Assembly (NCBI RefSeq): GCF_024700885.2
Contig: NZ_CP117016.1
DNA: 64,000 nt
Reading direction: 5' to 3' (one strand)
Origin: Escherichia coli
GTDB taxonomy: Bacteria > Pseudomonadota > Gammaproteobacteria > Enterobacterales > Enterobacteriaceae
The notes beneath the pieces were generated by a model. It ran no database searches. It had not been told where the DNA came from and saw nothing but the letters and a program-made list of their open reading frames with translations. A program made the translations under genes and the position numbers. Of this stretch, positions 40,060-64,000 are shown one piece after another. How positions within the stretch are numbered: the first letter of the stretch is position 1; the number at the start of each line of letters is the position of its first letter.

Positions 40060-40116
40060 GGTATCCGTTCTGCTGAAGTGTCATGGCGTTGATTTTACGG
40101 TGACTCTTCGACAGTG

Positions 40117-40142
40117 AAAAGAAAAAAGGCCGCAGAGCGGCC
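40117..40142 (-). terminator. rho-independent terminator on minus strand, upstream of btuC
   Basis: Minus strand reads GGCCGC-TCT-GCGGCC then a T6CT4 run. It would stop leftward transcription from the prophage int operon, or is the relic ihfA terminator. Confidence 0.55.
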
Positions 40143-40267
40143 ATAAACACAAGTAAAAATCAATAAGTTAGATAATTATCAAAGACTTACAGACACACAA
40201 AAACACAGCCAACCACAACAAATAACAGGGATGTGGTCACTTTGTGGATCATATCGCCGCCATAAAT

Positions 40268-40708
40268 TTACTTAATAACAGTAACCACAGCCACAAGCAC
40301 GGCCATCGCAGACAGGACAATACCTGTGAGTAACCAAGTCTGATTTGCAAATGATTTCTGAAGTTCAGTACGATGCTCAGCCATCTCAACTTTCAGAGAC
40401 TGGCGTAAATCAGCCATCTCAGACTTCAGGGATTGGCGAGATTCTGCCATCTCAAGCCTCAACCCTTCGCGAATCTCCAGTACATCAGATTTGGTAGCAA
40501 AGGATTCGCTTCTTGTGGTGAGAGTAATCAGGTTGTTTTTGATTTCAGTCACATCACTTTCCAGGCAACTGACCCGCCGTTCAAGGTCGTCATTCATGCC
40601 ATCACCTCCATCATTACCACTTCCTGTTACTTGGTTGTTGGATACATTATAGGCATTCTCTTTCTTTTTTCTGAACCGCGAAATATGTGCAACATTCTCT
40701 GCCATCAC
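40268..40708 (-). CDS. hypothetical tail-anchored coiled-coil membrane protein (prophage cargo)
   Basis: 146 aa; three 11-residue repeats (EMAESRQSLKS / EMADLRQSLKV / EMAEHRTELQK) and a single C-terminal TM helix (WLLTGIVLSAMAVLVAVVTVIK); start overlaps the stop of the upstream gene (ATGA). No family recognised. Confidence 0.55.
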   Translation of the reverse strand: MMAENVAHISRFRKKKENAYNVSNNQVTGSGNDGGDGMNDDLERRVSCLESDVTEIKNNLITLTTRSESFATKSDVLEIREGLRLEMAESRQSLKSEMADLRQSLKVEMAEHRTELQKSFANQTWLLTGIVLSAMAVLVAVVTVIK

Positions 40709-41067
40709 TTCTCATCACCCTGCTTGCCTACCCAGTTCATAAAGGCCCGGGCCGAGTAACGATGAACAAACCCACATCTGTTACAGGTAAGTCGGAATTC
40801 ATAGTTATGGATATTTTCCCGATCATGTCCCTCATATCCCGGATACCCAGTAAATGGACCGATGTAATCAAGCATAACAAAAGTGCCTAAATCACACTCC
40901 TCAGCAGTTTTCGGCTCAGGCCCCACCTCAACAATATTCGTCAAATACATGTACATATCCGTATCGCCACACGACAAACATTTTTCATTCGTAGACGACT
41001 CATTGAGAAAACGCGCAAAATTATCGAGCGTTGCCATTCTTTTAAGCTCATCTAAATGAAACTTCAC
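40705..41067 (-). CDS. hypothetical Cys-motif protein (possible zinc ribbon), prophage cargo
   Basis: 120 aa with CLSC and CNRC pairs; begins 3 nt after the integrase stop. No family recognised. Confidence 0.55.
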   Translation of the reverse strand: MKFHLDELKRMATLDNFARFLNESSTNEKCLSCGDTDMYMYLTNIVEVGPEPKTAEECDLGTFVMLDYIGPFTGYPGYEGHDRENIHNYEFRLTCNRCGFVHRYSARAFMNWVGKQGDEK

Positions 41068-41069
41068 TC

Positions 41070-42047
41070 TTAAGCACCTCCTAGTGGATTAAACCTCACC
41101 GCATCCTGCAGGTAATCCGGCGCAAGATGGGCATAAATCATCGTTGTCTGAATCTTTGCGTGCCCCAGAATTTTCTGGAGCGTGAGAATATTGCCACCGT
41201 TCATCATGAAATGACTGGCGAAGGTGTGGCGCAGCGCATGAACAGCCTGGCCGTCAGGAACATCAGGTGCGACCGTTTTGATGACATCGCGAACCAATGA
41301 ATAATCCAGCGTCGGAAACACCAGTTTCCCGCCCCGTTTTTTGATCTTTTCAAACAGGCTTTCAGAAATAGGAACGGTACGGTTTTTGCTGTTCTTCGTT
41401 TTTGAAAAAGTGATTCGACAATGAAGAACACGGCGCTGCTCCAGTACCGCTACCTCGCCCCATCGCGCCCCGGTCGACAGAAGGATTTCGACAGCCAGCC
41501 GTTCATCGGGATTTTCAGCCAGTGCATCCAGCAACTGAACACATTCAGACTTACTCAGATATCCCATTTCGCGCTCGTTAACCTTCATTCCTTTAAGGCC
41601 TTGAACGGGGTTATCGTTAAGAAAATGGCCGGATGAGATGAGTGCGGTAAACATCGCGCTTAACGCCCCAATCTCTCGATTTATGGTGCTGGGCTGTATC
41701 CCCTGCTCTATCCTGGACACACGTAGCTCGGTGAGCATCGTTGTATTAAGTCTATGCACGCACGGGTCATCCATTGCCTCACTCAAGCGCAGCAATTTAA
41801 GGCGCGTGTTATGCCCTGACTTCATTAGCTGGCCGTGGTATTTCCACCACAAGTCAATAAGCACTGACAGAGGACGGCGATCAATAGAGTTTCCTTTCCA
41901 CTCATTGTTATGCTGTTGCGCCAGCACCCACCGCTCATATAAAACTGCATCCGATTTCGTTTTAAATTTTTTGCGAATGCGTTTGCCTTTACGCCCCTCA
42001 GGGCGCATGTCAAGAAGATACCCTCCCGGAATTGATTTTATGCTCAT
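41070..42047 (-). CDS. int: P2-type tyrosine integrase
   Basis: From MSIKSIPGGY, about 45-50% identical by eye to recalled P2 Int (RPTGRNGKRIRRKF..., LSTGARWGEA, HALRH.F, LGH...TM.YAH). ORF-track start trimmed by 50 codons. Confidence 0.85.
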   Translation of the reverse strand: MSIKSIPGGYLLDMRPEGRKGKRIRKKFKTKSDAVLYERWVLAQQHNNEWKGNSIDRRPLSVLIDLWWKYHGQLMKSGHNTRLKLLRLSEAMDDPCVHRLNTTMLTELRVSRIEQGIQPSTINREIGALSAMFTALISSGHFLNDNPVQGLKGMKVNEREMGYLSKSECVQLLDALAENPDERLAVEILLSTGARWGEVAVLEQRRVLHCRITFSKTKNSKNRTVPISESLFEKIKKRGGKLVFPTLDYSLVRDVIKTVAPDVPDGQAVHALRHTFASHFMMNGGNILTLQKILGHAKIQTTMIYAHLAPDYLQDAVRFNPLGGA

Positions 42048-42096: not shown

Positions 42097-42405
42097 TTAG
42101 CCGGGCTGTGTACCAGTCTTGCGGGGCTTTTGAGAAGACGATGTGTTTTCTGGCCCATCAGGGGAGAGAGAGGGACTGATCTGCCCAGCAGCCTCATTCG
42201 TTTTTCCTGTCATAAGCCAATTCATGTACTTAAAAAAGCGAGGGTGATTAACAATCTTGATAAGCACTTCGCCCCCTATGTTTTCAATCCGCCCCGTTTC
42301 ATAACGACGCAAAGTGCCGATAGGCACATCAATCAGGCCGCAAAATTCTTCGCGCGTTAAATCCTCTGATTCACGAATCACTCTAATTTTTTCACCGATA
42401 AGCAT
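42097..42405 (-). CDS. P2 C-type immunity repressor
   Basis: 102 aa from MLIGEKIRVIRESEDLTREEF; resembles recalled P2 C (…SEKIVLMRKSEYLSRQQL…QTPQFTKYTLWFMT…) in sequence and position upstream of int. Confidence 0.75.
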   Translation of the reverse strand: MLIGEKIRVIRESEDLTREEFCGLIDVPIGTLRRYETGRIENIGGEVLIKIVNHPRFFKYMNWLMTGKTNEAAGQISPSLSPDGPENTSSSQKPRKTGTQPG

Positions 42406-42501: not shown

Positions 42502-42780
42502 ATGGCAAAAGTCCTGAACACACACGAACAGGCAGACTTTGAGCGTTTAGCAGCGTTCTATCCCTACCGCGATGAGCATGGGTTACCAGTACTTGAAGAA
42601 AGCCTGAAAGATTACGCAAAGCGTACCAACCAAGCTGTTAACACAGTGAAAAGACAGGCTGACAGAGGTTCAATTCCCATCAACCAAGATGAAAAGAACT
42701 CAAGACGCACAGTAAATCTTTTCGCTCTTTTCCTGAAAACAATCAGGAGCGCAGAGAAATACGTGCAGATGACAAAATAA
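42502..42780 (+). CDS. first early-operon gene (Cox/Apl position; putative excisionase/regulator)
   Basis: 92 aa in the position of P2 cox; sequence similarity to P2 Cox not evident, so function is by position only. Confidence 0.45.
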   Translation: MAKVLNTHEQADFERLAAFYPYRDEHGLPVLEESLKDYAKRTNQAVNTVKRQADRGSIPINQDEKNSRRTVNLFALFLKTIRSAEKYVQMTK

Positions 42781-42794: not shown

Positions 42795-43133
42795 ATGCTG
42801 AAGCAACGCCGTAATTTTCGTACCGGAACAGAACGCCACGCTAACCATTTCGCTACCAACGCATCACGCAGCAACATCCGCTACAGCCTGAGCGAGACGC
42901 ACGCAACACCTGATGGCCACACAGTAAAACAAATTGGCGAACACACCTGGCTAATTGAAAAAGCTGGAATCGTGGTTCACAGATGCCCACGCAATCCGTT
43001 TACCGGAAACCGCATTTTTGCACTAAGCAGCGGCGACAATCAGTTCGGACAGGATTTCACATTGTACGAAGCACTTCGCACGGTTGATCGTCTGCTTCGC
43101 GGGCAAAGTTTTATTAAACAGACTGATTTATAA
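42795..43133 (+). CDS. hypothetical phage early protein
   Basis: 112-aa ORF in the early operon. Confidence 0.5.
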   Translation: MLKQRRNFRTGTERHANHFATNASRSNIRYSLSETHATPDGHTVKQIGEHTWLIEKAGIVVHRCPRNPFTGNRIFALSSGDNQFGQDFTLYEALRTVDRLLRGQSFIKQTDL

Positions 43134-43143
43134 CAGGTGCGTT

Positions 43144-43422
43144 ATGACCAAAGAGCATGCACAAGGTGTATTTATCCGTTTTATTGATTTTCGCGGTGAA
43201 CTGTTATTGCGCGCATCAGCTATTGATGGAGTTGTCCCATCAGAAAAAAATGCAGCTACTTACGTTTATCTGAACGGCACGCGCCTGACCGTAGAACTTC
43301 CGTACCAGACTGTACACGGAATCATTAGCGAAGCTGAAAAAGCGCGCCAGGCTAATGGCAATGAACCCTATATCGAAATTATTTGCATGGATTCAGAAGC
43401 TGAAATCCAGAAAGCAGATTAA
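43144..43422 (+). CDS. hypothetical phage early protein
   Basis: 92-aa ORF from MTKEHAQGVF, tightly spaced in the operon. Confidence 0.5.
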   Translation: MTKEHAQGVFIRFIDFRGELLLRASAIDGVVPSEKNAATYVYLNGTRLTVELPYQTVHGIISEAEKARQANGNEPYIEIICMDSEAEIQKAD

Positions 43423-43433
43423 AGGGTGTTGCA

Positions 43434-43676
43434 ATGGACAAAGAATATAAAACACTCATCAACAAAGCACTTGAGCGTTTTTATTTTCGCTTAAGTGCAT
43501 CAGGCGCTCATGCTGAACGTGCAGCCCGTGACTCATTGACTAGGGCAATCCGGAGTCTGTATGACGTGGCTTTTTACGCTGATGATCTGGATGCACTTAA
43601 CGAACTTTCCGAGCTGATCTGTGCCGCAGAATGCGGGGAGCATATTGAACCGTATAAGCTGGGGAATATTGCATGA
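43434..43676 (+). CDS. hypothetical phage early protein
   Basis: 80-aa ORF. Confidence 0.5.
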   Translation: MDKEYKTLINKALERFYFRLSASGAHAERAARDSLTRAIRSLYDVAFYADDLDALNELSELICAAECGEHIEPYKLGNIA

Positions 43677-43786
43677 GTATATTTATCTCATGGCTTGTCC
43701 TGATTATTTCGGTGGTCTGCGCCATTGGGATTATGCAAATTATTCATTCAGTAAAAAAGATTGAACGCATTTTCACTGGCGAATAA
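43673..43786 (+). CDS. small hydrophobic peptide (37 aa), translationally coupled
   Basis: MSIFISWLVLIISVVCAIGIMQIIHSVKKIERIFTGE; ATGA overlap with the upstream stop; single TM helix. Below the ORF-track size cut-off. Confidence 0.35.
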   Translation: MSIFISWLVLIISVVCAIGIMQIIHSVKKIERIFTGE

Positions 43787-43873
43787 CAGCGCAAATAAAA
43801 ACCCTAGGTTAAATAAGAAAATGTAAAAACAATCCGCATTCGCGGAGGTATTCGCACACGCCCAGGAGGCGTA

Positions 43874-44077
43874 ATGGCAATTAAGCATTTTCCTGTCGTT
43901 CGTTTCACTTCCAGAGGACGTGAATACGAAGTCGACGAACGCCTGATTACCACAATCGACAAACACCGCTCAGAAAAGGATGCACACCACATCTATCTCA
44001 CTGACGGTACTTACTTCTGCGCCACTAATGTGGCGCGGGTGAATCTTATCCGACAGGTACAGGATCCACGCAAATGA
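43874..44077 (+). CDS. hypothetical phage early protein
   Basis: 67-aa ORF. Confidence 0.45.
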   Translation: MAIKHFPVVRFTSRGREYEVDERLITTIDKHRSEKDAHHIYLTDGTYFCATNVARVNLIRQVQDPRK

Positions 44078-44292
44078 GCAGGAGAAGAATCACTCGCAGA
44101 CATCACCGCACACACCTGAATTCCTCAGCAACGCTAAAGGCACTTATTCAAAGCGAGATCGGTGATTTCTTCGCGGGAGTTGGCTCACCAGGTGAACCAG
44201 AAACACCAGAAGCGATGCAGCGTGAGCTCATGATACGCATAGATAACACTTTTGATTTCTTCTACAGCATGCACGGAATTAAACAGAAATGA
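44074..44292 (+). CDS. hypothetical phage early protein
   Basis: 72-aa ORF overlapping the previous stop by 4 nt. Confidence 0.45.
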   Translation: MSRRRITRRHHRTHLNSSATLKALIQSEIGDFFAGVGSPGEPETPEAMQRELMIRIDNTFDFFYSMHGIKQK

Positions 44293-44400
44293 ACCTCAAG
44301 CCAGCAATAACTATTCGTAGAACGCCAATTTCTGTAACCGACCGCTTCTGAGTTTTTTGGCAGGAAGCCTTCGCACATCCTTAGTAGAGAGAATTGCAGC

Positions 44401-44790
44401 ATGATTGACGCTCATGACTTCACAAGATGGGTGCGCACACAGGACACCCGTCTGGCTCCCATTCTTCGGGGATTATTTGATCTCTACATTCGTGGTCGTG
44501 ACAACAGAGCACGCACCACAAAACCGGAGAATGTGGATACCCTTTATTTCACAGTAGACGACTGCTACCGCGTGGACTTCACACCACACGGACTGGCGTT
44601 GCACTGCCTGACACCGCACGGCGAATCACTGCTGGCGTATTACGACTCCCCGGCCTCCGTATTTGCGGCAATGCTGGCGCATCGCACTGCTGGCGGGTGT
44701 GCCTCGCTGAGTGAATACACCGCTGAGTTTAACCGCCTTTCCGCCCTCTTCTCGCAGGAGTGGCAGCGCGTGACGGGATACCAGCCATGA
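44401..44790 (+). CDS. hypothetical phage early protein (P2 B-gene position)
   Basis: 129-aa ORF immediately upstream of and overlapping the A gene start. Confidence 0.5.
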   Translation: MIDAHDFTRWVRTQDTRLAPILRGLFDLYIRGRDNRARTTKPENVDTLYFTVDDCYRVDFTPHGLALHCLTPHGESLLAYYDSPASVFAAMLAHRTAGGCASLSEYTAEFNRLSALFSQEWQRVTGYQP

Positions 44791-47627
44791 GTGAGTTTGC
44801 ATGGAGCTGGAATGAACCACGGCCAGCCATTGATCCGGCCAGATTTACGGAGCGCAGGCAGGAAACTGAAACCGACCTGCAACGCGCCATCCGTTACTAC
44901 CTTGAGGCAGACAAAAAGGCCCAAGAAGAACAGGAAGCGAAAGAGGAAGCCTTTTTCGCACAATCCGCCATGGGTAAAAAACTCATGGCATCCCTTGAGG
45001 AAGCCGGACAGCGTGAAAAGCTGGCACAAAGCATCATCAGTAAGCGCCGGGCAACAGAACAAGACCCGGTGGCCCGTGCCTTTGCCACACTGAAGGTGCT
45101 TCCCGTTTATCTGCGAGAACCCCTGAGCCGCCACCTCTCTTTCCTGCGCAAAAAACAGGAAGCCGATCGCCGGAAAGGCAAAAAGAGCTGGCAGGCGGAA
45201 CGCTATGCACGCGGAACCCTGCGCAAAATATTCGAACGTCTGGATCGCACTGACGGACGCTGGCTGACACAGGGTTATCGCTCCATTGCCGGACGCGAAC
45301 GCCTGGACGATTTGCTTTACCTGCCGCAGCTCAACAAACACCAGGTACAGACACTGGCCACCATGACGGCAGCAATGTTCAGTAGCACATTCGAAAAACT
45401 CTGCGATGGCTTTGGCGCGACCGATGGTGAGCTGACCATGGATGTAACGCTGAAGGCGTATCAGATGCTGGCCCGCATGGCGTTACATCTGCACGCCATG
45501 CCTCCACATTATGACGCACTGACAACAGATAGAGATCGGAGGAACGAACCGGACACAGAGCTGCTGCCAGGCGCAATCCTTCGCCTGACCTGTGCTGAAT
45601 GGTGGAAACGCAAACTGTGGCTATTACGTTGCGAGTGGAGAGAAGAACAACTCCGCGCCGCCTGTCTGGTTTCCAGAAAAACATCGCCCTATCTGAGCCA
45701 GGACGCGTTAAGCGAGTTTCGCGCACAGCGCGAGAAAACACGCGATTTCCTGAAAGGTTTCATGCTGGAAAACGAAGACGGGTTCACGATTGATCTCGAG
45801 ACAGTGTATTACGCGGGAGTAAGTAACCCGGTTCACCGTAAGGCAGAAATGATGGCCACCATGAAGGGGCTGGAACTTCTGGCCGAGGCCCGTGGTGACA
45901 AAGCGGTGTTTCTGACTGTCACCTGCCCGTCAAAATACCACGCCACAACAGAGAACGGTCATCCGAATCCCAAATGGAACGGGGCCACCATGCGCGACTC
46001 CAGCGATTACCTGGTTAACACGTTTTTTGCGGCGGTCCGCAAAAAACTGAACCGCGACGGTCTGCGCTGGTATGGCATCCGCACGGTGGAGCCTCACCAT
46101 GACGGCACCGTGCACTGGCATATGATGGTCTTTGCTCATCCGGAAGAAATCGACAGCATCGTGGCCATCACCCGCGATATTGCCATTCAGGAAGACCGCC
46201 ACGAGCTGGGCAATGATATTACTCCGCGCTTTAAGGTGGAGTATGTCGACGGCTCAAAAGGCACACCAACCAGCTATATCGCGACCTACATCGGAAAAAA
46301 CCTGGACAGCCGCGCCGTGGATGGCATCGACCCGAAAACGGGCAAACCACGCGTTGACCACGAAACAGGTAAATCAATGGCCGAGAGCGTGGAGCGCGCC
46401 ATCGGCTGGGCGCGCCTTCACCGGGTCCGCCAGTTCCAGTTCTTTGGCATCCCCTCCCGTCAGGTGTGGCGTGAACTGCGCCGCCTTGCCAGCCAGATGG
46501 CACGCAACCCGGAAGGCCCGCAACGGCTGAAGGATGACGCAATGGATGCGGTACTCGCTGCCGCTGATGCCGGGTGTTTTGCCTCCTACATTGAAAAACA
46601 GGGTGGCGTACTTGTTCCACGCAAGGACTACCTGATTCGCACCGCCTACGACCTCGCAGATGAGCTGAACGATTACGGCGAACAGAGCGTACAGATTTAC
46701 GGGATCTGGTCACCACTCATCGGGGAATCCTCCCGTGTGTGCACGCACCCGGATAACTGGAAGCTGGTAAGACGTAAACCGGAAGCGGAAGACAGCACCC
46801 GCGAAAATGATTTTGACCTTCAGGGCGGCCCTGCCGCCCCTTGGACTCGTGGCAATAACTGTCCCCGTGTACAGGAAACAGACAACAACGGGACAGAACA
46901 GCCGGAAGAACGGCCAGCACCGTGGCCGCAGCTCCCTGACGGCGTTGAAGTGAACGAATGGATGCATTCACTGAAACGGCACGAACGCCGGGCGCTGATG
47001 CGTTCGCTTCGTGACAAACAGGCAAAAAACAGCAGCGATGAAATGCAGAACTGGACACAGAGCCGCAAACAGCCACAGCCTTTACCTGATAACCACGAGT
47101 TACTCGCTAAAGAATGGCGGGAGTCTGCTGAATCTCTCGGCCTGCATATTGGTGAACAGCAGATGCAGCACCTGTTACGGGGCGGCAGTCTGTACGTTGA
47201 CGGCAGCATCATTGCACCGCAGGGATTTGAAATTGTACGCAAACCGGATACCCGCCCGGACAGCCGAATCACGCAGCTCTGGCAACGCCTGAGCCGTAAT
47301 CACGGCGTAAGCAGCACGGAGATCCGCCATAACCCGGTCGCCAGCTATCTGGAACAGCTGGGGGCATCAGACCCTGAAGCCGCCGCACGCCTGGCATCCA
47401 CACTTCAGCAAGACCAGAACACCATGAAAACCCCCGTTACCGTGCTTTCTGACATGCTGCGCGCCATCCGTGACGCAGAGCACGCACAGAGAATCAGTGA
47501 AACCACTGAACGCGCCCACCGCAAAGCAGACCTGCTGCGGGGTAGCCTGACCAGTGGAAACAAAAAACAGACAGAAACGGGACTCACAAATCCCGTAAAT
47601 GAGCAAAAAACGTGCCGCGATATATGA
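44787..47627 (+). CDS. P2 gpA-type rolling-circle replication initiator with long C-terminal extension
   Basis: 946 aa from MSEFAWSWNEP; HUH-type motif VHWHMMVFAH and downstream Tyr-containing region (YIATYIGKN) typical of P2/186 A proteins; last 200 aa or so is low-complexity. Confidence 0.8.
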   Translation: MSEFAWSWNEPRPAIDPARFTERRQETETDLQRAIRYYLEADKKAQEEQEAKEEAFFAQSAMGKKLMASLEEAGQREKLAQSIISKRRATEQDPVARAFATLKVLPVYLREPLSRHLSFLRKKQEADRRKGKKSWQAERYARGTLRKIFERLDRTDGRWLTQGYRSIAGRERLDDLLYLPQLNKHQVQTLATMTAAMFSSTFEKLCDGFGATDGELTMDVTLKAYQMLARMALHLHAMPPHYDALTTDRDRRNEPDTELLPGAILRLTCAEWWKRKLWLLRCEWREEQLRAACLVSRKTSPYLSQDALSEFRAQREKTRDFLKGFMLENEDGFTIDLETVYYAGVSNPVHRKAEMMATMKGLELLAEARGDKAVFLTVTCPSKYHATTENGHPNPKWNGATMRDSSDYLVNTFFAAVRKKLNRDGLRWYGIRTVEPHHDGTVHWHMMVFAHPEEIDSIVAITRDIAIQEDRHELGNDITPRFKVEYVDGSKGTPTSYIATYIGKNLDSRAVDGIDPKTGKPRVDHETGKSMAESVERAIGWARLHRVRQFQFFGIPSRQVWRELRRLASQMARNPEGPQRLKDDAMDAVLAAADAGCFASYIEKQGGVLVPRKDYLIRTAYDLADELNDYGEQSVQIYGIWSPLIGESSRVCTHPDNWKLVRRKPEAEDSTRENDFDLQGGPAAPWTRGNNCPRVQETDNNGTEQPEERPAPWPQLPDGVEVNEWMHSLKRHERRALMRSLRDKQAKNSSDEMQNWTQSRKQPQPLPDNHELLAKEWRESAESLGLHIGEQQMQHLLRGGSLYVDGSIIAPQGFEIVRKPDTRPDSRITQLWQRLSRNHGVSSTEIRHNPVASYLEQLGASDPEAAARLASTLQQDQNTMKTPVTVLSDMLRAIRDAEHAQRISETTERAHRKADLLRGSLTSGNKKQTETGLTNPVNEQKTCRDI

Positions 47628-47703: not shown

Positions 47704-48663
47704 ATGAAAATTTGTATCGACGACGGCTCCACCAACATCAAGCTGGCATGGACTGAGAACGGCGAACGCCGCAACGCCATCAGCCCGAACAGCTTCAAGT
47801 CGGAATGGTCTGCGCCGTTCGGTGGCACGCAGCCCGCGAACTACATGCTTGATGGCGTGCGCTATGGTTTTGATCCGGTCAGCGATCGCTTTATCCAGAC
47901 GACCGACACACAATACCAGTACAGCGATGTGAATGTCATTGCCATTCATCACGCGCTGGTCAAATCAGGCATCACGCCACAGGAGGTGGATGTGGTTGTC
48001 ACCCTGCCACTGAGCGAGTATTTCGACACAAACGCACAGCCGGACATGGCCAACATCAACCGCAAAAAAGCAAACGTTATGCGCCCGGTGGAATACCAGA
48101 ACGGCGAAGCATTCACTATCCGTAATGTACGGGTTATGCCTGAATCCATTCCGGCTGGCTTTAAAGCACTGGCTGACATGAGTCCGTTTGAATCCCTGCT
48201 GATTGTGGATTTAGGTGGAACCACGCTGGATGTGGCAAAGGTTCAGGGACAACTGGCAGGTATCAGCCAGGTGTTTTGCGATCCACACGTAGGCGTTTCC
48301 CTGATGGCCGATGCAGTACTGTCGGTGATGGCCACTAACGGTATGCGTACCAGTCACCACATCGCCAATACCATTATCGAACATCGCCATGATGAAGCCT
48401 GGCTGCGCCAGCACATCCACAATGACGCGCATTACGCCAGCCTGATGGCGGTTATTCGTGAAAAGGAAGAAACACTGAAACAACGCGTGATCCGCGCGCT
48501 GGCGGGTTTTTCGGGTTACGGGCGGGTGATGGTTGTCGGTGGCGGGGCGGAGATTGTGGCACCCGCTATCCGCGAAGCCTGCGGAGTTAATGCGACTTTC
48601 ATCGCGGACGGGGTGCCACAGTTTGCTCTGGTTAATGGGCTGTACGCAATGGACAAGGAGTAA
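47704..48663 (+). CDS. ParM/StbA-like actin-type ATPase
   Basis: 319 aa; actin-fold motifs IDDGSTNIKL (phosphate 1), DLGGTTLDV (phosphate 2), VVGGGAE (adenosine); collinear over full length with recalled plasmid R1 ParM (MLVFIDDGSTNIKLQW…YSDVNVVAVHHALL…VMPESIPAGY…DLGGTTLD…GGGAEL). Confidence 0.8.
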   Translation: MKICIDDGSTNIKLAWTENGERRNAISPNSFKSEWSAPFGGTQPANYMLDGVRYGFDPVSDRFIQTTDTQYQYSDVNVIAIHHALVKSGITPQEVDVVVTLPLSEYFDTNAQPDMANINRKKANVMRPVEYQNGEAFTIRNVRVMPESIPAGFKALADMSPFESLLIVDLGGTTLDVAKVQGQLAGISQVFCDPHVGVSLMADAVLSVMATNGMRTSHHIANTIIEHRHDEAWLRQHIHNDAHYASLMAVIREKEETLKQRVIRALAGFSGYGRVMVVGGGAEIVAPAIREACGVNATFIADGVPQFALVNGLYAMDKE

Positions 48664-48667
48664 ACCA

Positions 48668-49006: not shown

Positions 49007-49042
49007 TCTCCATCTCAGAACATAAACAAGAAGAGCGACTTA

Positions 49043-49426: not shown

Positions 49427-49454
49427 CTTAAAGCGGAAGATTAATACATGGTGA

Positions 49455-55442: not shown

Positions 55443-55487
55443 TCAACTCACGGCGGGCATCATGCCCGCCTGTAACGGAGAGAAAAA

Positions 55488-56288: not shown

Positions 56289-56380
56289 CGACTGACCCCG
56301 TCAGCGGGCGGCGTGCGCGGTGTTCCGGTTTGACTCCGTGACCGTTTACACCGCGCACCCACCGCCCGATTTTTTCAGGA

Positions 56381-56884
56381 GTGAACCCCATGAGTATGGT
56401 TGCCAGAACCAACCCCGGCCCCGCAGAGGACGACATCACCGATACCGATGATGGTGATACCCGTATTTCAGCGGGTGCATTCTGGCCGGATATTGTGCTG
56501 CGTGAGCTGCGTCTGGCGGTACGACTGCCGGGGCGCGTGACCACCTCCCGCCTGCTGCATACCGCCACCGGGGCCGTGGCACACGTTACCCGCGAGCTGG
56601 AAGCGTGGCAGCAGGAACAGCAGGCGGCTGGCCATCAGACGCTGGCCGATGTTCCGGCACCCGTAATTAACGGAGAAAGCGTCAATCTCTGGCGCTGGCG
56701 CAATGCTGTTTATACCGCCACACGCGCCCTGATTCTGGAGCGTTACCGCGATGCGGACACAACGGACAAGGGCGACCGCCGGGCGGACGCACTGGATATA
56801 CAGACATCGGATTTGTGGCGCGATGTGAGCTGGGCCATCTCTGACATTCTGTGCCGCCCGCGAATCTTTGCGGAGTTGTGCTGA
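56381..56884 (+). CDS. head completion/stabilisation protein (P2 gpL-like)
   Basis: About 165 aa; resembles recalled P2 gpL (LADVPA...GES...LWRDMRWA). Confidence 0.75.
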   Translation: MNPMSMVARTNPGPAEDDITDTDDGDTRISAGAFWPDIVLRELRLAVRLPGRVTTSRLLHTATGAVAHVTRELEAWQQEQQAAGHQTLADVPAPVINGESVNLWRWRNAVYTATRALILERYRDADTTDKGDRRADALDIQTSDLWRDVSWAISDILCRPRIFAELC

Positions 56885-57084
56885 TGAAAGTGAAGGCACT
56901 GGAAGGCGACACCGTGGATTCGCTCTGTTTCCGGTACTACGGCACGACGCAGGGCGTCACCGAAAAGGTGCTGGATGCCAACCCCGGACTCTGTCAGCAG
57001 GTATTTCTGGACGCCGGGCAGGAAGTGGAGATGCCGGAGCCGGAGAAGAAGAAACGAGAAATGATTCAGTTGTGGGGGGAGTAG
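56884..57084 (+). CDS. tail protein X (P2 gpX-like, LysM-like)
   Basis: 66 aa from MKVKALEGDTVDSLCFRYYGTTQGVTEKVLDANPGL; resembles recalled P2 gpX (MKTFALQGDTLDAICVRYYGRTEGVVETVLAANPGL). Confidence 0.8.
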   Translation: MKVKALEGDTVDSLCFRYYGTTQGVTEKVLDANPGLCQQVFLDAGQEVEMPEPEKKKREMIQLWGE

Positions 57085-57086
57085 CA

Positions 57087-57410
57087 GTGAGCACCATTCA
57101 AACAGGGATCACAGAGCAGGTTATTGCATGGCTCTTTGACCACCTGCCAACGGTGTATGCAGTAGGCGCGGCGGTCAGCATTTCCGCGCTGATGAGTCTT
57201 TATGACGGACGAACACTGGTTCAGACCGTAACGGGATCGCTGGCGTGCGGCGTTCTTGCCATGGCCGTGGCCGGGTCGTTGCGCTTCTTCGGTTTTCCTG
57301 AAGATGCCGTGACGTTTATCGGCGCATCAATCGGTTTTATGGGGGCAGAGAAAGCACGCGACAAGGTTATTGCGGCCTTTAATCGCAGGGTGAAGGAGAA
57401 GGACGAATGA
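57087..57410 (+). CDS. putative holin
   Basis: About 107 aa from a GTG start; two hydrophobic helices and a charged C-terminus (RRVKEKDE); sits immediately upstream of the endolysin. Confidence 0.5.
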   Translation: MSTIQTGITEQVIAWLFDHLPTVYAVGAAVSISALMSLYDGRTLVQTVTGSLACGVLAMAVAGSLRFFGFPEDAVTFIGASIGFMGAEKARDKVIAAFNRRVKEKDE

Positions 57411-57799
57411 GCAACACATTTAAATTCAGCAGCCGGAGCGAAAAGAATTTGCAGGGCGTAAATCCTGATCTGGTGAAAGTGACCCGACGGGCACTGGAAA
57501 TTTCGGAAGTGGATTTTGGTATCACCGAAGGGTTGCGCAGCCGTTACCGCCAGAAGCAACTTGTGGCCACAGGTAAGAGCCAGACCATGAACAGCCGCCA
57601 CCTTACGGGACATGCCGTGGATGTTGTGGCTTATATCGGCAGCCAGGTGTCATGGGAATGGCCGCTGTACGAAAAAATCGCAGCCGCATTCAGACAGGCC
57701 AGCCGGGAACTGAATATTCCGGTGGAATGGGGCGGCGACTGGAAGACCCTGAAAGACGGACCGCATTTTCAGTTACCACACGGAGCCTATCCGGCATGA
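57407..57799 (+). CDS. endolysin, peptidase-M15-like zinc peptidase
   Basis: 130 aa; His/Asp zinc-site pattern (HLTGHAVD...DGPHFQ) typical of L-Ala-D-Glu peptidase endolysins; P2 K is a lysozyme, so this is a module replacement. Confidence 0.7.
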   Translation: MSNTFKFSSRSEKNLQGVNPDLVKVTRRALEISEVDFGITEGLRSRYRQKQLVATGKSQTMNSRHLTGHAVDVVAYIGSQVSWEWPLYEKIAAAFRQASRELNIPVEWGGDWKTLKDGPHFQLPHGAYPA

Positions 57800-58203
57800 A
57801 GCTCTGGCCAACGCTTGGCGTCGCTTTCCTTCTGATTGTCGGATGGGGAACATCCATGCGTCTGTCATGGTCGCTGGGCCGGGAGAACGCCAGAAACGAA
57901 GCGCAGGCCAGCACCCTGAAACGTACCGCCGACACCCTGAATATCATCAGCGCCGGGGTACAGGATATGCAGCAGGTGCTGGCGCAACTCCGCGTGGAAA
58001 ATCAGCAACGCAATCAGGACGGAGAGGCAAGACGTGAACAGCTACGCAACGATATTGCAAAAGATGAATGCGCCCACGCTTTGCCTGACGCTCGTTTTAC
58101 TGACAGGCTGCGCAGGCACGCAGAACGCGCTACGGCCAGCGCCGTCAGTCCGGCTTATACCGCAGACGCTGACCATACCGGTAACGCCTCCCCCCTTCCC
58201 TGA
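57796..58203 (+). CDS. i-spanin (Rz/LysB-like)
   Basis: From MKLWPTLGVAFLLIVGW; N-terminal TM then coiled coil; ATGA-coupled to the endolysin. Confidence 0.65.
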   Translation: MKLWPTLGVAFLLIVGWGTSMRLSWSLGRENARNEAQASTLKRTADTLNIISAGVQDMQQVLAQLRVENQQRNQDGEARREQLRNDIAKDECAHALPDARFTDRLRRHAERATASAVSPAYTADADHTGNASPLP

Positions 58204-58354
58204 CACTCCCACATGGGGAAATCTCGGTATATGGGGCGACCGCCTTCTGGATGCACTGGAAACCTGTAACGCGGATAAACGGGCCATTGAATTACTGGAA
58301 CAGCGCAGGCTGCAACGACTGAACAACGAGGACAACAACCATGCTGAAAACTGA
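58064..58354 (+). CDS. o-spanin lipoprotein (Rz1/LysC-like), overlapping the i-spanin in the +1 frame
   Basis: From MNAPTLCLTLVLLTGC (lipobox LTGC), Pro-rich; overlapping architecture like P2 lysB/lysC. Confidence 0.6.
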   Translation: MNAPTLCLTLVLLTGCAGTQNALRPAPSVRLIPQTLTIPVTPPPFPDTPTWGNLGIWGDRLLDALETCNADKRAIELLEQRRLQRLNNEDNNHAEN

Positions 58355-58808
58355 TTCCCTGCGTGAAGCCATGACCCGTTCATGCCGATGGTGTCAGGCC
58401 AACCCGGAAAAATTCACCATTTTCGTGGAGAGCGGCAACATTGAAACGACCGGAGAAACGCCCTCGTTTGTTTACCGCTATCAGATGGTGATGTTTGTCA
58501 TGGATTACGCCGGGGAGCTGGACGACCTCACGTTGCCGCTACTGGCGTGGTTATCCGAAAATCAGCCACAGTTGTTGCTCAATCCGGAGCGTAATCAGGA
58601 CATCAAATTTTCCGCCGTTATCAATGACGATGACAGCGCCGATCTCCTGTTTACGCTCCCCCTGCGGGAACGCGTTCGCATTACGCGCAACAGTCAGGGC
58701 ACACCGCAGGCAGAACACCTGCCGGAGCCAAAACCCCGTCTGCCCTCTTCCGAAGGCGACTGGTCACATGTATTCCAGGATGTGACGTGGGGTGAAAGCG
58801 ATGGATAA
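58341..58808 (+). CDS. tail completion protein (P2 gpR-like)
   Basis: 155 aa; position after the lysis genes as in P2. Confidence 0.7.
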   Translation: MLKTDSLREAMTRSCRWCQANPEKFTIFVESGNIETTGETPSFVYRYQMVMFVMDYAGELDDLTLPLLAWLSENQPQLLLNPERNQDIKFSAVINDDDSADLLFTLPLRERVRITRNSQGTPQAEHLPEPKPRLPSSEGDWSHVFQDVTWGESDG

Positions 58809-59436
58809 GGCATTCACCCGTGTGGATGAAACCTTTGAGGCCATCCGCGACAGCCTGAATCAGCAGGCCATCAATAACATCGCCAGAAAGCTGGCACAGG
58901 ATTTACGCCGCGCCCAGCAGGCACGTATCCGGTCACAGAAAGCGCCGGACGGGACCGCGTGGACACCTCGCAGACGCCGCGTAACCCGGATACAGGAGCG
59001 CATTCGCTTTATCTGGAATAACGAAGCACGCACGCTGAAAAACTGGCATCACGACACGGGGAAATACGGGCGAACCATTACCGGGTGGGATGAGGATAAA
59101 AACAATATCCGCACGTTTTACCGGGATGACATCGACCGTTTTCTGGAAATACGCACCCGGCGCATCAACCAGGACAGCACAAAGCGCGTCCCCATGTTCG
59201 TAAAACTGCGCACCGCCCGCTACCTGAAAGCCCGTGCAGATGCTTCCGGTGTGACGGTGGGTTACAGCGGCGTGGCCGCACGTATTGCACGCGTTCATCA
59301 GTTCGGTGAGCGCGATCAGGTTGCGCCGGGCATTTTCACCGATTACTCGGTACGTGAGCTGCTGGGTATCAGCCTGGCAGATGAACGCCTGATTTATAAC
59401 ACGGTGCTGGGCCGGATTGCGGAGGCTGTACGGTGA
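58801..59436 (+). CDS. tail completion protein (P2 gpS position)
   Basis: About 211 aa; late-operon synteny. Confidence 0.6.
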   Translation: MDKAFTRVDETFEAIRDSLNQQAINNIARKLAQDLRRAQQARIRSQKAPDGTAWTPRRRRVTRIQERIRFIWNNEARTLKNWHHDTGKYGRTITGWDEDKNNIRTFYRDDIDRFLEIRTRRINQDSTKRVPMFVKLRTARYLKARADASGVTVGYSGVAARIARVHQFGERDQVAPGIFTDYSVRELLGISLADERLIYNTVLGRIAEAVR

Positions 59437-60014
59437 GCGCAGAACTCATGCGACTGCTGAGCAACATCATCCGCACCGGGATCATCTCTGAAGTTGATGA
59501 GGAATCCTGGTGCGTGCGCGTTCGCAGCGGCGAACTGGAAACAGGCTGGTTGCGCTGGAACACCACGCGCGCGGGAGCCTTCAATGTGTGGCTGCCGCCA
59601 TCACCAGGCGAACAGGTGGTAATTGCCTGCATTGGCGGCAACCCGGAAACCGCCATGATAATTGGCAGCCTGTGGAGTGATGCCATTCCGGCCCCCGGCA
59701 AAAGCCTGAAAGAAATCGTGGTCAGCGCGCCGGATGGCGCGGTGTTCCGCTACGACGCGGCCGCAGGCGCACTGAGCGCCAGCGGCATGAAAACAGCCAC
59801 CCTGCAGGCATCCGTCAGCGTGACACTGGATACGCCCGTCGTGGAATGCACAGACCTTCTGAGAACGGCGACGCTTGACGTCACAAAAGGGGGAAAGATG
59901 AGCGGCAATATCACGCACAGCGGCGGCAATTTCACCTCAAACGGCATCACAGTGCATACGCATAAACACGGTGGCGTTAAAGGTGGCAGCGATTCGACAG
60001 GAGGCCCGCAGTGA
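59433..60014 (+). CDS. baseplate spike/assembly protein (P2 gpV-like)
   Basis: 193 aa; synteny V-W-J-I. Confidence 0.7.
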   Translation: MSAELMRLLSNIIRTGIISEVDEESWCVRVRSGELETGWLRWNTTRAGAFNVWLPPSPGEQVVIACIGGNPETAMIIGSLWSDAIPAPGKSLKEIVVSAPDGAVFRYDAAAGALSASGMKTATLQASVSVTLDTPVVECTDLLRTATLDVTKGGKMSGNITHSGGNFTSNGITVHTHKHGGVKGGSDSTGGPQ

Positions 60015-60361
60015 CAACCCGCTATACAGGAATGAACCCGGACGGAACGGGAAACCTGAACGATATGGAGCACCTGAAACAGTCAGTCAAGGACATCCTG
60101 ACCACCCCGCTGGCAAGCCGGGTTATGCGACGGGAATATGGCAGCCTTGTGCCTGATTTGATAGACGAACCCATGAATAACACCACGCGTCTGCAATGCA
60201 TGAGTGCTGCCGTGATTGCGCTGACACGATGGGAACCCCGCATTGCCCTGGATGCCATCGACGTTGTCTGGAAGGCAGGAGGCCGCGCCGGGGTGACGCT
60301 GTCGGGCACTGTCATGCAGACCATGCAGAATGTTGAATTAACCATCACGCTGAGGGAGTAA
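60011..60361 (+). CDS. baseplate wedge protein (P2 gpW-like)
   Basis: 116 aa, same size class as P2 W; synteny. Confidence 0.75.
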   Translation: MTTRYTGMNPDGTGNLNDMEHLKQSVKDILTTPLASRVMRREYGSLVPDLIDEPMNNTTRLQCMSAAVIALTRWEPRIALDAIDVVWKAGGRAGVTLSGTVMQTMQNVELTITLRE

Positions 60362-60364
60362 ATC

Positions 60365-61261
60365 ATGCCTGCCGTTGACCTTTCACAGTTACCGGAACCC
60401 GCCATCATCGCGGAGCCTGACTTTGAGGCAATTCTGGCTGACACAAAGGCCATGATGATTGCGTCCTATCCCGCCGAACAGCGTGAAGCCGTTTCCGCCG
60501 CGCTGGAGCTGGAATCGGAACCCCTTAACGTTATCGCTCAAACCATGTCGTTTCGTGAAATGCTGTTACGCCAGCGGGTCAATGAGGGTGCACGCGCCTG
60601 CATGCTAAGCCACAGCGCCGGGACAGACCTGGACAACCTCGCGGGCAATATGAACACAAAGCGCCTGGTTATCACTCCGGCAACGGATACCACCGACGCA
60701 GTGATGGAAAGTGACACCTCGCTGAGACTACGGGCGCAACGGGCATATGACGGTCTGAGTGTTGCTGGCCCGTCAGGTGCATACGAGTATTTTGCACGCA
60801 GCGCCAGCGGTCTGGTACGCGATGCGCGGGCCATCAGCCCGTCTCCGGCCAACGTGACGGTTTCCATCCTGTCCACTGAGGGCGACGGCACAGCAACGGA
60901 GGCGTTGCTTAATACCGTTCGCGCCGTTCTGAATGCAGAGCATACCCGCCCGGTGGCCGACCGCCTGACCGTACAGAGTGCCAGAATCGTGACATGGCGG
61001 CTGAATGCAAAACTGTACTTTTACCCCGGCCCGGAATCCGAACCTATTCTGGCCGCGGCGGAATCGTCATTCAGGAAGTGGCTGGCTGAACAGGGGCTTA
61101 TCGGTCAGGACGTGGCGTTGTCCGCCATTGCTGCCGCACTTCATGTACACGGCGTGCAACGCGTGGAGATAATCGAACCCACACAGAATATGGCCATCAG
61201 CGACATACAGGCGGCGCGCTGTGAGTCATTCACCATCAGCGAAGGTGGGCGTAATGAGTAA
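60365..61261 (+). CDS. baseplate protein (P2 gpJ-like)
   Basis: 298 aa; synteny. Confidence 0.75.
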   Translation: MPAVDLSQLPEPAIIAEPDFEAILADTKAMMIASYPAEQREAVSAALELESEPLNVIAQTMSFREMLLRQRVNEGARACMLSHSAGTDLDNLAGNMNTKRLVITPATDTTDAVMESDTSLRLRAQRAYDGLSVAGPSGAYEYFARSASGLVRDARAISPSPANVTVSILSTEGDGTATEALLNTVRAVLNAEHTRPVADRLTVQSARIVTWRLNAKLYFYPGPESEPILAAAESSFRKWLAEQGLIGQDVALSAIAAALHVHGVQRVEIIEPTQNMAISDIQAARCESFTISEGGRNE

Positions 61262-61784
61262 TTCACTGTTACCGCCATCAGCCAGCAGTTTCATGCGTCG
61301 TGCCGAAGCTGTCGGAACGCGCATTACAGACATCCCGGTAGACCTCAACACGCTGTGGTCGCCGGACACCTGCCCGGTGCACCTGCTGCCTTATCTCGCC
61401 TGGGCATTTTCCGTTGACCGCTGGGATCGCAACTGGCCGGAAGAGACAAAGCGACAGGTGATTCGTGATGCATGGCTGATACACCGACACAAGGGAACCA
61501 TCAGCGCACTGCGCCGGGCCATTGAGCCGCTGGGATACCTCATTCGTGTGTCTGAGTGGTGGGAGTTCGGCGGAGAACCGGGAACATTTACCGTTGAAGT
61601 GGGCACGCTGGACAGTGGCGTGACGGAGGAAATGTATCTGGAAATGGAGCGGTTGATTGCTGATGCCCGCCCGGTCAGCCGCCACATGACAGGGCTGAAT
61701 ATCATTCAGGAGATCCCGGGAGATATTTTCGCGGCGGCAGCAACTTACGACGGTGAAGTCATTACCATTTATCCGGACGATTAA
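61254..61784 (+). CDS. baseplate/tail protein (P2 gpI-like)
   Basis: 176 aa from [13 protein letters not shown]; overlaps the J stop. Confidence 0.75.
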
Positions 61785-61786
61785 GC

Positions 61787-63976
61787 ATGAGTACCACAAC
61801 ACGTAAATTTAAAACCGTTATCACCGATACGGGTGCCAAAAAATTAGCTCAGGCAGCCGCGCCAGATGGTAAGCTTGTCCGCCTGACTCATATGGCCGTG
61901 GGCGACGGTGGCGGTACATTGCCCACACCAGACAGTAAGCAGACCCGTCTGGTGCATGAGGTGTGGCGACATACTGTTAATCGCGTCTTCCTGGACGCAA
62001 CACATCAGAACCGCATTATTGCGGAGCTGGTTATTCCTCCTGAAACGGGCGGATTCTGGATCCGGGAAATTGGTGTATTTGATGAGCACGGCGATTTGAT
62101 CGCGGTTGGCAATACAGCCGAAAGTTACAAGCCAACCGTTGCCGAAGGGTCAGGACGTGCACAAACATTTCGCACCATTCTGACCGTCTCCAGCACTGCC
62201 ACTGTGGCGCTTACCGTGGATAACACCATGGTTATGGCCACAGTGGATTACGTGAATGACAAACTGAAAGAACATGAACAGTCACGACGTCACCCGGACG
62301 CCTCGCTGACCGCAAAAGGCTTTGTTCAACTCAGTAGCGCCACCAACAGCACGTCTGAAGCACTGGCCGCAACGCCGAAAGCGGTCAAGGCAGCCTATGA
62401 CCTTGCTAACGGGAAATATACCGCACAGGACGCCACTATAGCGCGAAAAGGCCTTGTTCAGCTCAGTAGCGCCACCAACAGCGATTCTGAAACGCTGGCG
62501 GCAACACCAAAGGCGGTAAAGGCAGCATATGACCTTGCTAACGGGAAATATACCGCACAGGACGCTACCACAGCGCGAAAAGGTCTTGTCCAGCTCAGTA
62601 GTGCGACCAACAGCACATCCGAAATGCTGGCGGCAACACCAAAGGCGGTAAAGGCAGCATATGACCTTGCTAACGGGAAATATACCGCACAGGACGCTAC
62701 GACAGCACAAAAAGGAATTGTCCAGCTCAGTAGTGCAACCAACAGCGCATCTGAAACGCTTGCTGCGACATCGAAAGCAGTGAAAGCAGCTAATGACAAT
62801 GCGAATGGTCGGGTACCTTCTGCCCGTAAGGTGAATGGTAAGGCGCTTTCAGCGGATATAACACTGACACCGAAAGATATTGGTACGCTTAACTCAACAA
62901 CTATGTCATTCAGCGGTGGTGCTGGTTGGTTCAAATTAGCAACGGTAACCATGCCGCAGGCGAGTTCTGTTGTTTCAATTACGTTGATTGGTGGGGCTGG
63001 ATATAACGTCGGTTCACCTCAACAGGCAGGTATATCTGAACTTGTTTTGCGTGCAGGTAATGGTAATCCGAAGGGGATTACTGGTGCTTTATGGCAGCGC
63101 ACATCGGCAGGGTTTACAAATTTTGCCTGGGTCAATACATCTGGTGATACTTACGATATTTACGTTGCAATCGGAAATTATGCGACTGGTGTAAATATTC
63201 AATGGGATTATACCAGTAATGCCAGCGTAACGATTCATACGTCACCTGCATATTCTGCTAATAAGCCGGAAGGGTTAACGGACGGTACAGTTTATTCACT
63301 CTATACGCCATCAGAGCAGTTTTATCCGCCTGGCGCACCAATCCCGTGGCCATCGGATACCGTTCCGTCTGGTTATGCCCTGATGCAGGGGCAGACTTTT
63401 GACAAATCTGCCTACCCGAAACTTGCAGTCGCTTATCCGTCAGGCGTGATCCCTGATATGCGTGGCTGGACGATTAAGGGCAAGCCCGCCAGTGGTCGTG
63501 CCGTATTGTCTCAGGAACAGGACGGCATTAAATCGCACACCCACAGCGCCAGCGCATCCAGTACGGATTTGGGTACGAAAACCACATCTTCGTTTGATTA
63601 CGGCACTAAATCAACGAATAACACGGGTGCACATACCCACAATGTATCTGGTACTGCAAATAGTGCTGGCGCACATACTCATACCGTTCCATTAAGGAGA
63701 CCAAACAGTGGAGGTATGAATTTCGACTGGCTTGATGGTGCATCAAGTGGCACGGTGGTGGGGAATGGAACTGTGCCTTCTTCTGGCGCACATACCCACT
63801 CAGTATCAGGTACCGCTACAAGTGCTGGGGCACATGCACACACTGTTGGTATTGGCGCTCATACGCACTCTGTTGCGATTGGTTCACATGGACACACCAT
63901 CACCGTTAACGCTGCTGGTAACGCGGAAAACACCGTTAAAAACATCGCATTTAATTATATTGTGAGGCTTGCATAA
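61787..63976 (+). CDS. tail fibre protein (P2 gpH-like) with internal tandem repeats and C-terminal His-x-His repeats
   Basis: 729 aa; conserved N-terminal baseplate-attachment region, four 44-aa repeats, and a C-terminal array of GAHTH/HTHSV motifs. Confidence 0.8.
62313..62840 (+). repeat. 4 x 132-bp in-frame tandem repeat inside the tail-fibre gene
   Basis: Repeat unit encodes KG(F/L)[37 protein letters not shown].; the fourth copy is degenerate. This is coding repeat, not CRISPR. Confidence 0.8.
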
Positions 63977-64000
63977 TGGCATTCAGAATGAGTGAACAAT
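63976..64000 (+). CDS. start of next tail gene (tail-fibre assembly position), truncated by window end
   Basis: ATG overlapping the H stop (MAFRMSEQ...); only 8 codons visible. Confidence 0.3.

Follow-up and report, generated by a model that had tools for sequence, protein, structure and literature searches.

Integration of a P2-like prophage at the ihfA terminator of Escherichia coli MLI114

The interval between btuC and ihfA in the studied stretch of Escherichia coli DNA (64,000 nucleotides, hereafter the window, with 0 mismatches over 64,000 bases to strain MLI114) is occupied by a prophage whose attachment site is the terminator of ihfA and not the ihfA coding sequence. A copy of this terminator is present at both junctions, and ihfA is displaced, not lost. 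It is almost certain that a temperate P88-like phage of the P2 family entered by integrase-mediated recombination between its attP and a 25-bp attB in the ihfA terminator, moving ihfA by about 34 kb and leaving the host units undisrupted. Many recombination systems depend on ihfA as an accessory factor, and in this strain the gene is intact and keeps a terminator. The integration site is already known, having been published for E. coli SE11, and the finding is real but ordinary: the gap in synteny with K-12 reflects a prophage insertion of the standard kind at a site that is recurrent and already described, and has little import beyond correct annotation.

The features of the btuC-side junction are as follows.

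39079-40059, minus strand: btuC, the left host gene, intact (open reading frame list; RefSeq annotation of the identical MLI114 sequence; K-12 layout)
40092-40120, minus strand: candidate promoter-like site upstream of btuC (TTTTCA-17-TAAAAT), a consensus match only (consensus scans of the window and K-12)
40118-40142, unstranded: attL core of 25 bp, AAAGAAAAAAGGCCGCAGAGCGGCC (sequence; attB/attL/attR alignment; 25-nt duplication reported for SE11)
40128-40142, minus strand: copy of the ihfA intrinsic terminator hairpin (GGCCGC-TCT-GCGGCC, then TTTTTTCTTT) (terminator scans; RNA folds)

In K-12 (locus L001) btuC occupies 3173-4153 and ihfA 4254-4553, the ihfA stop codon being exactly 100 bp past the btuC start, in accord with the distance of about 100 bp given by an earlier, sequence-only reading of the window. 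Homology to K-12 covers btuC, a 59-bp spacer and the hairpin GGCCGCAGAGCGGCC (40128-40142) and then stops; the alignment proposed by that reading shows a precise break at 40143, with ATAAACACAAG in the window versus TTTTTAGTTAGATCAGATTA in K-12. A minus-strand terminator followed by phage DNA had been noticed at the expected position of ihfA, and this is what the alignment reveals. The sequence from 40143 to 64000 belongs to a phage and includes genes of an integrase, a C-like repressor, a cox-like protein, gpA, portal, terminase, capsid, lysis, baseplate and tail fibres, which bears out the claim of a P2-like prophage at the btuC-ihfA junction. Its proposed span, 40060-64000, is correct as regards phage DNA up to the window end and has to be amended at the start, as the element begins with the att core (40118-40142) and its first phage-specific base is 40143. 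The ihfA gene is absent from the whole window, where blastn found chance matches of no more than 18 nt only, in agreement with the earlier failure to see its 3' end near the junction. A check for a tRNA or tmRNA target found none, and Rfam gave only RprA and rydB in the window. The promoter-like site of btuC has the same sequence in K-12; with its -35 hexamer reaching into the att core at the left edge, it is preserved at attL.

The attL core is identical to K-12 attB, and its second copy lies at attR outside the window (window-equivalent 74479-74503), the core-to-core length of the prophage in MLI114 being 34,361 bp. The duplicated 25-bp core can be written as AAAGAAAAAAGGCCG(C/G)AGAGCGGCC, and the repeats, which the sequence-only reading had suggested looking for, match at 24 of 25 positions in MLI114 and at 25 of 25 in SE11. 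The left flank of attL, the core and the right flank of attR together rebuild K-12 attB exactly; site-specific prophage integration is recognised by a core repeated at either end of the element and by an exact empty site where the element is absent. Directly beyond attR the order pheS-pheT-ihfA is kept, and ihfA, whose stop codon is 17 nt past the attR core, has 0 differences from K-12 over 300 nucleotides. Displacement of ihfA past the right prophage end, one of two earlier suggestions, was therefore confirmed, the intact gene being situated 34.4 kb from btuC; the other, an att site overlapping ihfA, is right for the terminator and wrong for the coding sequence.

The mismatch between the core copies is a C-to-G change in the hairpin stem at attR of MLI114, whereas SE11 has a perfect copy there. 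According to RNA folds it makes the terminator less stable (predicted -14.7 instead of -20.2 kcal/mol). The terminator scan missed the attR hairpin, which nevertheless folds, its 5-bp GC stem being lengthened by A-U pairs. The G variant was found in 3 genomes only, which, together with the perfect repeat of SE11, identifies it as a lineage SNP; for the same reasons the idea that the mismatch marks the crossover point or the attP allele was rejected.

Integration very probably proceeded by Int-mediated site-specific recombination of the phage attP with the 25-bp attB, composed of the ihfA terminator hairpin and its T run. With the whole terminator inside the duplicated core, ihfA keeps a terminator at attR, and the attL copy, which sits between the prophage and btuC, would separate btuCED from leftward phage transcription. 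Because the terminator is wholly within the core, neither the ihfA nor the btuCED unit should be disrupted, and the insertion is probably neutral for the expression of ihfA and btuC.

The following features are related to recombination and its control.

40158-40189, plus strand: two IHF-consensus sites (WATCAANNNNTTR) of the P' arm, 40158-40170 with AATCAATAAGTTA and 40177-40189 with TATCAAAGACTTA (consensus matches)
40232-40251, plus strand: candidate arm-type Int sites of the P' arm, a pair of direct repeats (TGTGGTCA and TGTGGATCA) with a spacing of 11 bp, putatively bound by Int (motif positions; likeness to P2 attP)
41070-42047, minus strand: tyrosine integrase of 325 aa, P2 Int family (Pfam Int_N 6e-28, Phage_integrase 1.2e-18; PHROG integrase)
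42097-42405, minus strand: immunity repressor of P2 C type, HTH (PHROG 147 transcriptional regulator, 3e-31; RefSeq; 37% identity to P88 C)
42502-42780, plus strand: Cox-like protein, candidate excisionase and early repressor (PHROG 11533; PHROG 575 'Cox-like excisionase and repressor', 1e-7)

Tyrosine recombinases of the P2 Int type are recognised by conserved Arg, His-x-x-Arg and Tyr motifs in the catalytic Phage_integrase domain and by an N-terminal arm-binding domain. Over the full length the integrase of the element shares 49% identity with P2 Int; the N-terminal arm-binding region is conserved, as are the motifs STG(A/G)RW, LRHTFASH and YAHL in the alignment of the two proteins. No sequenced free phage with the same integrase was found at the DNA level, the best protein match being 54% identical.

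Candidate Int sites of the P arm, TGTGGACA and AGTGGAACA, are also 11 bp apart and lie at -56 and -45 from the core start, TGTGGTCA and TGTGGATCA being at +114 and +125; the repeats of both arms are of the TGTGGNCA type. Three of the 4 exact matches to the IHF consensus in 44.5 kb fall no more than 70 bp from the att cores, against a chance expectation of 1.7 over the whole 44.5 kb. In P2 attP each side contains a pair of TGTGGAC repeats spaced by 11 bp, and the same arrangement, along with the IHF-consensus sites by the cores, suggests P2-type attP architecture in the MLI114 element. Such IHF-consensus sites, a Cox-like gene and the position of int adjacent to attP are common to the P2 system. 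The core and attB differ, since the MLI114 element uses the ihfA terminator and P2 its loc sites, and accessory genes separate int from attP, an interval for which no gene is annotated in the P2 record. IHF may help the recombination complex to form on the arm repeats, and excision is presumably Cox-dependent.

To the right of the cox-like gene the window contains the replication, partition and late genes.

42795-47627, plus strand: early operon with DUF4761 and DUF4754 genes, small ORFs and gpA (RefSeq annotation; tblastn with P88 proteins)
44787-47627, plus strand: gpA replication endonuclease, full length, 88% identical to P88 (tblastn)
47704-48663, plus strand: ParM-like partition gene, common to P88, 99.7% identity (PHROG 691 / 2515 'partition protein', ParM/ParR pair)
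48668-48979, plus strand: ParR-like partition gene, common to P88, 96% identity (PHROG 691 / 2515 'partition protein', ParM/ParR pair)
49043-50506, unstranded: variable accessory region between the replication module and portal, with a partial ead/Ea22-like gene, a frameshifted gene and small ORFs (RefSeq)
within 50578-64000, minus strand: late region, portal Q and terminase P (RefSeq; P88 matches)
within 50578-64000, plus strand: late region, O, N, M, L, X, holin, endolysin, LysB/C, R, S, V, W, J, I and H (RefSeq; P88 matches)

Gene content and alignment place the element among P88-like phages within the P2 family (Peduoviridae). RefSeq annotation and tblastn to P88 identified gpA and a P2-type late gene set, the family being defined here by portal Q, terminase P, scaffold O, capsid N, small terminase M and L; contractile tail genes FI, FII, E, T, U and D; baseplate V, W, J and I; an ogr-type activator; and gpA. 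All P88 late proteins were matched at full length by tblastn, most of them with 96-100% identity and the scaffold protein O with 81%; the window stops where the tail-fibre assembly gene begins. The homology to P88 is interrupted at 49030-50124, and the accessory region 49043-50506 gave no PADLOC hits. Gene order is as in P88 (Xuanwuvirus P88, Peduoviridae; NC_026014), including the FI-FII-E-T-U block on the strand opposite to H-G and D, and both elements have ParM/ParR-like genes and a right-end hok/gef. About 74% of the MLI114 prophage aligns with P88 at approximately 95% (94.7%) identity, giving a value of ~0.70. According to the ICTV convention, a genus unites phages with ~70% or more genome-wide nucleotide similarity to a member, and the element is thus on the threshold of Xuanwuvirus. 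The integrase and the repressor are only 43% and 37% identical to those of P88, and the cox-like gene has no P88 counterpart, so att specificity and immunity should differ from those of P88. The earlier term 'P2-like' stands at the family level; on a finer scale the element appears P88-like (Xuanwuvirus-like), its integrase and immunity module being of another kind. P88 is devoid of the int-proximal cassette and of a 384-aa ORF between D and ogr, and it differs from the MLI114 element by the presence of an invertase and by its alternative tail fibre.

In E. coli SE11, Oshima et al. (2008, DNA Res 15:375, PMC2608844) reported a P2-like prophage, PP_SE11-4, located 'between btuC and ihfA' and with 25 nt duplicated; the MLI114 element coincides with it in integration site, 25-nt duplication and P2-like class. 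The SE11 element has the integrase, repressor, cox-like gene and int-proximal cassette as in MLI114, with 82% of length at 96.5% identity, but it carries a DNA invertase with an alternative tail-fibre segment, and its accessory genes between gpA and portal are different. In complete E. coli genomes the junction is unsplit in 5120 of 5425 and split in about 306, and this integrase occurs in 296; approximately 5.5% have this integrase or a split junction. An identical btuC-side junction was found in 42 of 43 IMG/VR proviruses. The same phage type also occupies a secondary site, the look-alike hairpin GAAAAAGGCCGCAGAGCGGCC within a lambdoid prophage (IMG/VR contig 2737471845_000015). The anatomy of the att region (core, arm repeats, IHF sites and natural secondary site) could make it possible to delimit this prophage family automatically.

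Many phages enter the 3' ends of genes and rebuild them, and the absence of the ihfA 3' end from the btuC-side junction would suit an att site inside the ihfA coding sequence, with a replacement 3' end supplied by the phage. This explanation has practically no probability left: it is refuted by the gene at attR, which is host sequence throughout, and by a core that ends 17 nt downstream of the stop codon, so that the terminator alone is duplicated. Equally negligible is the chance that ihfA disappeared or moved through a rearrangement in which the phage had no part, or that misassembly created the junction. Nothing speaks for it except that the window lacks ihfA, whereas the junction recurs in 80 complete genomes with the MLI114-type cassette, in about 300 with this integrase and in 42 independent IMG/VR proviruses, and the intact pheS-pheT-ihfA order past attR refutes it from the whole-genome context.

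A defective, locked-in remnant, inserted in the same way and later deprived of excision or particle formation, is in our opinion rather unlikely. Consistent with it are pseudogenes in the accessory regions, a shortened gpD in the RefSeq annotation and the attR core mismatch in the hairpin, the likely crossover region, which could impair excision. An exact search for the excised or circular attP junction in the viral contigs of IMG/VR gave none, and a shorter pattern matched attL junctions only, which also fits this explanation. The attR change is, however, limited to the 3 genomes, the SE11 repeat being perfect, and the short gpD results from start-codon choice, the actual ORF being full length and 99% identical to P88 gpD. 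Moreover, every P88 late, lysis and replication gene is present at full length, as is the integrase, well conserved in comparison with P2 Int, and the repressor and cox-like genes are retained. Inversion of the FI-U tail block and truncation of gpD were rejected as signs of a defect, since the functional phage P88 is arranged alike and gpD is full length. With no attP junction in IMG/VR and no sequenced free phage carrying the integrase, the MLI114 prophage can be called only putatively active. Int-mediated integration of a temperate phage at the ihfA terminator is the preferred explanation of the junction itself.

The main side observation concerns a hypervariable two-gene cassette between int and attL.

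40268-41067, minus strand: two-gene accessory cassette (translations; PHROG 4293 and 9415, both families without an assigned function)
40268-40708, minus strand: gene of a coiled-coil protein of 146 aa, anchored in the membrane by its C-terminal helix (translation)
40705-41067, minus strand: gene of a 120-aa zinc-ribbon-like protein (translation)

The zinc-ribbon-like protein has the pattern CxxCG...CxxCG...W. Five alternative cassettes occur at exactly one position in this int-proximal locus, namely four divergent alleles (23-28% identity) and one unrelated single gene, and the integrase beside them is 97-100% conserved. Searches of the alternatives against PADLOC, Pfam and NCBIfam matched no family, and those of the accessory proteins against PADLOC, Pfam, NCBIfam and PHROG gave no functional assignment. 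Quite tentatively, the two genes may be considered an uncharacterised prophage-encoded module of anti-phage defence or superinfection exclusion. New accessory or defence genes might be found in such a hypervariable cassette next to the integrase gene.

The window is the reverse complement of positions 2441704–2505703 of the E. coli MLI114 chromosome (NZ_CP117013.1), with 0 mismatches in 64,000 bases, and on the basis of this full-length identity the sequence to the right of the window was read from the MLI114 genome. The core E. coli genes at positions 1–40059 lie in the same order as in K-12 (fumD, pykF, lpp, sufABCDSE ... selO, ydiV, nlpC ... btuD, btuE, btuC), and RprA and rydB were the only RNA families found there using Rfam. 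In K-12, 100 bp separates the stop codon of ihfA from the start of btuC on the same strand, and this gap holds the hairpin AAAAAAGGCCGCAGAGCGGCCTTTTT, predicted to be an intrinsic terminator on the ihfA strand. Identity to K-12 in the window covers btuC, the spacer and the hairpin and is lost at 40143, from which phage DNA extends throughout to 64000; ihfA was absent from the 64,000 bases searched. The sequence-only reading, which had described a prophage at the btuC–ihfA junction with ihfA missing from its expected place, was right on both points, and its start of the element at 40060 is corrected to 40118, where the duplicated att core begins, or 40143, where phage DNA begins. The features of the two junctions are as follows:

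39079–40059: btuC, within the stretch of K-12 identity
40128–40142: hairpin, a copy of the ihfA terminator, the last stretch identical to K-12
41070–42047, minus strand: integrase of 325 aa with Pfam Int_N and Phage_integrase domains
74479–74503 (window-equivalent, outside the window): attR core, AAAGAAAAAAGGCCG(C/G)AGAGCGGCC, 25 bp

In MLI114, phage DNA gives way 34,361 bp later to the second copy of the 25-bp core, and direct repeats are present at both ends of the prophage, at attL and attR. Next come TTTTTAGTTAGATCAGA and the stop codon of ihfA, in an arrangement identical to that of K-12. The insertion moved ihfA beyond the right end of the prophage, as had been suggested, and left it intact: no nucleotide differences from the K-12 gene were found, and the genes beyond it, pheT, pheS, pheM, rplT, rpmI, infC and thrS, keep their normal order. 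Joined through the core, the sequences left of attL and right of attR give K-12 attB exactly, with no base gained or lost. The other proposal, that the att site overlaps ihfA, holds for the terminator and not for the coding sequence, since 17 nt separate the stop codon from the core.

Integration between btuC and ihfA is already known, the site having been published by Oshima et al. (PMC2608844) for the E. coli SE11 prophage PP_SE11-4, which they class as P2-like with a duplication of 25 nt, and the case considered here is a routine prophage insertion at the ihfA terminator. Among 5425 complete E. coli genomes holding the locus, the junction is unsplit in 5120 and split in about 306, and the integrase of the element was found in 296 genomes. 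The same phage type occupies the same insertion point in EPEC E2348/69. Of the 43 proviruses in IMG/VR that contain the junction motif, 42 have an identical btuC flank. In the 43rd (draft contig L048), the same P88-like phage type is inserted after a core look-alike, GAAAAAGGCCGCAGAGCGGCC (L048 4550–4581; L051 3111–3133), which lies in a lambdoid prophage, upstream of its terminase genes, and is empty in strain UTAK-5. On this one draft contig, GAAAAAGGCCGCAGAGCGGCC looks like a natural secondary attachment site within another prophage, and insertion at the look-alike points to the hairpin plus a run of A as the probable recognised core.

Identity between the integrase and P2 Int is 49% along the full length and extends to the catalytic motifs and the N-terminal segment that binds the arms; the enzyme was found in no sequenced phage of the phage collection, where the best protein match was 54% identical. 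Relative to the core start of attP, as reconstructed by joining the attL and attR junction sequences, TGTGGACA and AGTGGAACA lie at 56 and 45 bp on the left, and TGTGGTCA and TGTGGATCA at 114 and 125 bp on the right. These arm repeats are in direct orientation with a spacing of 11 bp within each pair, and P2 attP has the same design with the repeat TGTGGAC. Of four exact matches to the IHF consensus in 44.5 kb, three fall within 70 bp of the cores, and a Cox-like gene is present in the element. From this anatomy and homology, we infer that the element recombines by the P2 mechanism, in which Int would bind core and arm sites, IHF would bend the att arms and Cox would direct excision.

The P2-family gene set is complete and includes int, a C-type repressor, the cox-like gene, gpA, Q, P, O, N, M and L, as well as lysis genes, baseplate, tail fibre, FI–U, D and ogr. 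At the DNA level, 74% of the element aligns with P88 (Xuanwuvirus, Peduoviridae) at about 95% identity, and 82% aligns with the SE11 prophage at 96.5%. Five parts distinguish it from P88: the integrase/immunity/att module, some of the early region, the accessory stretch from gpA to the portal gene, the distal tail-fibre region and DNA inserted between D and ogr. Every late, lysis and replication protein of P88 has a full-length match, by which the prophage looks structurally complete. The location of the tail block FI–U on the opposite strand is not a sign of damage because the P88 layout is identical. Nor is gpD damaged. In RefSeq, it appears as a 262-aa "VgrG/Pvc8 family" protein beside a pseudogene fragment (L002, the MLI114 sequence continuing past the window, 9574–10680), but its ORF is full length, with 409 open codons and a 99% match to P88 gpD over 365 aa, and the RefSeq start is therefore probably wrong.

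The stretch of 0.5–1.15 kb from the integrase stop codon to the P' arm (cassette at 40268–41067 in the window) is hypervariable, and this accessory position between int and attL is already known. Five cassette types, of 509, 788, 927, 1040 and 1150 bp, were found behind an integrase end conserved at 97–100%. Four of the five are alleles, diverged from one another, of a single two-gene module encoding a small zinc-ribbon protein with invariant CxxCG...CxxCG...W (23–28% identity among alleles) and a coiled-coil protein with a predicted C-terminal membrane helix, which in one allele gave a weak CCDC90-like/DUF1640 match. The cassette proteins had no PADLOC, NCBIfam or significant Pfam match, and the two in the window belong to PHROGs of unknown function.

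ParM-like and ParR-like plasmid partition genes (47704–48979) are carried by this integrating prophage, with products that match those of P88 at 99.7% and 96% identity. Between gpA/ParMR and the portal gene (49043–50506), at the position of the classical P2 old/tin hotspot, the element has only small ORFs, a frameshifted gene and part of an ead/Ea22-like gene, and PADLOC, PHROG and RefSeq annotation gave no recognisable defence system. Outside the window, an ORF of 384 aa on the opposite strand between gpD and ogr (L002 8289–9443; in SE11, L003 35792–36946) is missing from P88 and had no match in PHROG, Pfam or PADLOC. An acetyltransferase-like "transferase" gene (L002 16603–17148) occupies the position at which P88 and SE11 have a DNA invertase and an alternative tail-fibre segment, and a toxin gene of the Hok/Gef family is found close to attR (L002 7490–7630), as in P88.

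The core spans the stem-loop plus a run of T, and ihfA would therefore retain its terminator at attR. In MLI114, a G replaces C in the attR hairpin (L002 7211; window-equivalent 74494, past the right end of the window), which leaves 5 GC pairs in the stem in place of 6 and lowers the stability predicted by RNA folding from −20.2 to −14.7 kcal/mol. Only three complete genomes have this G variant; SE11 lacks it, and its core repeat is perfect. Termination of ihfA transcription might be slightly weakened by the change, and excision might be reduced, since the attL and attR cores of MLI114 are no longer alike. At the left end, the attL terminator copy would separate btuC from leftward phage transcription of int and the cassette genes, and consensus scans of the window and K-12 showed that the promoter-like site upstream of btuC (40092–40120) is unchanged.
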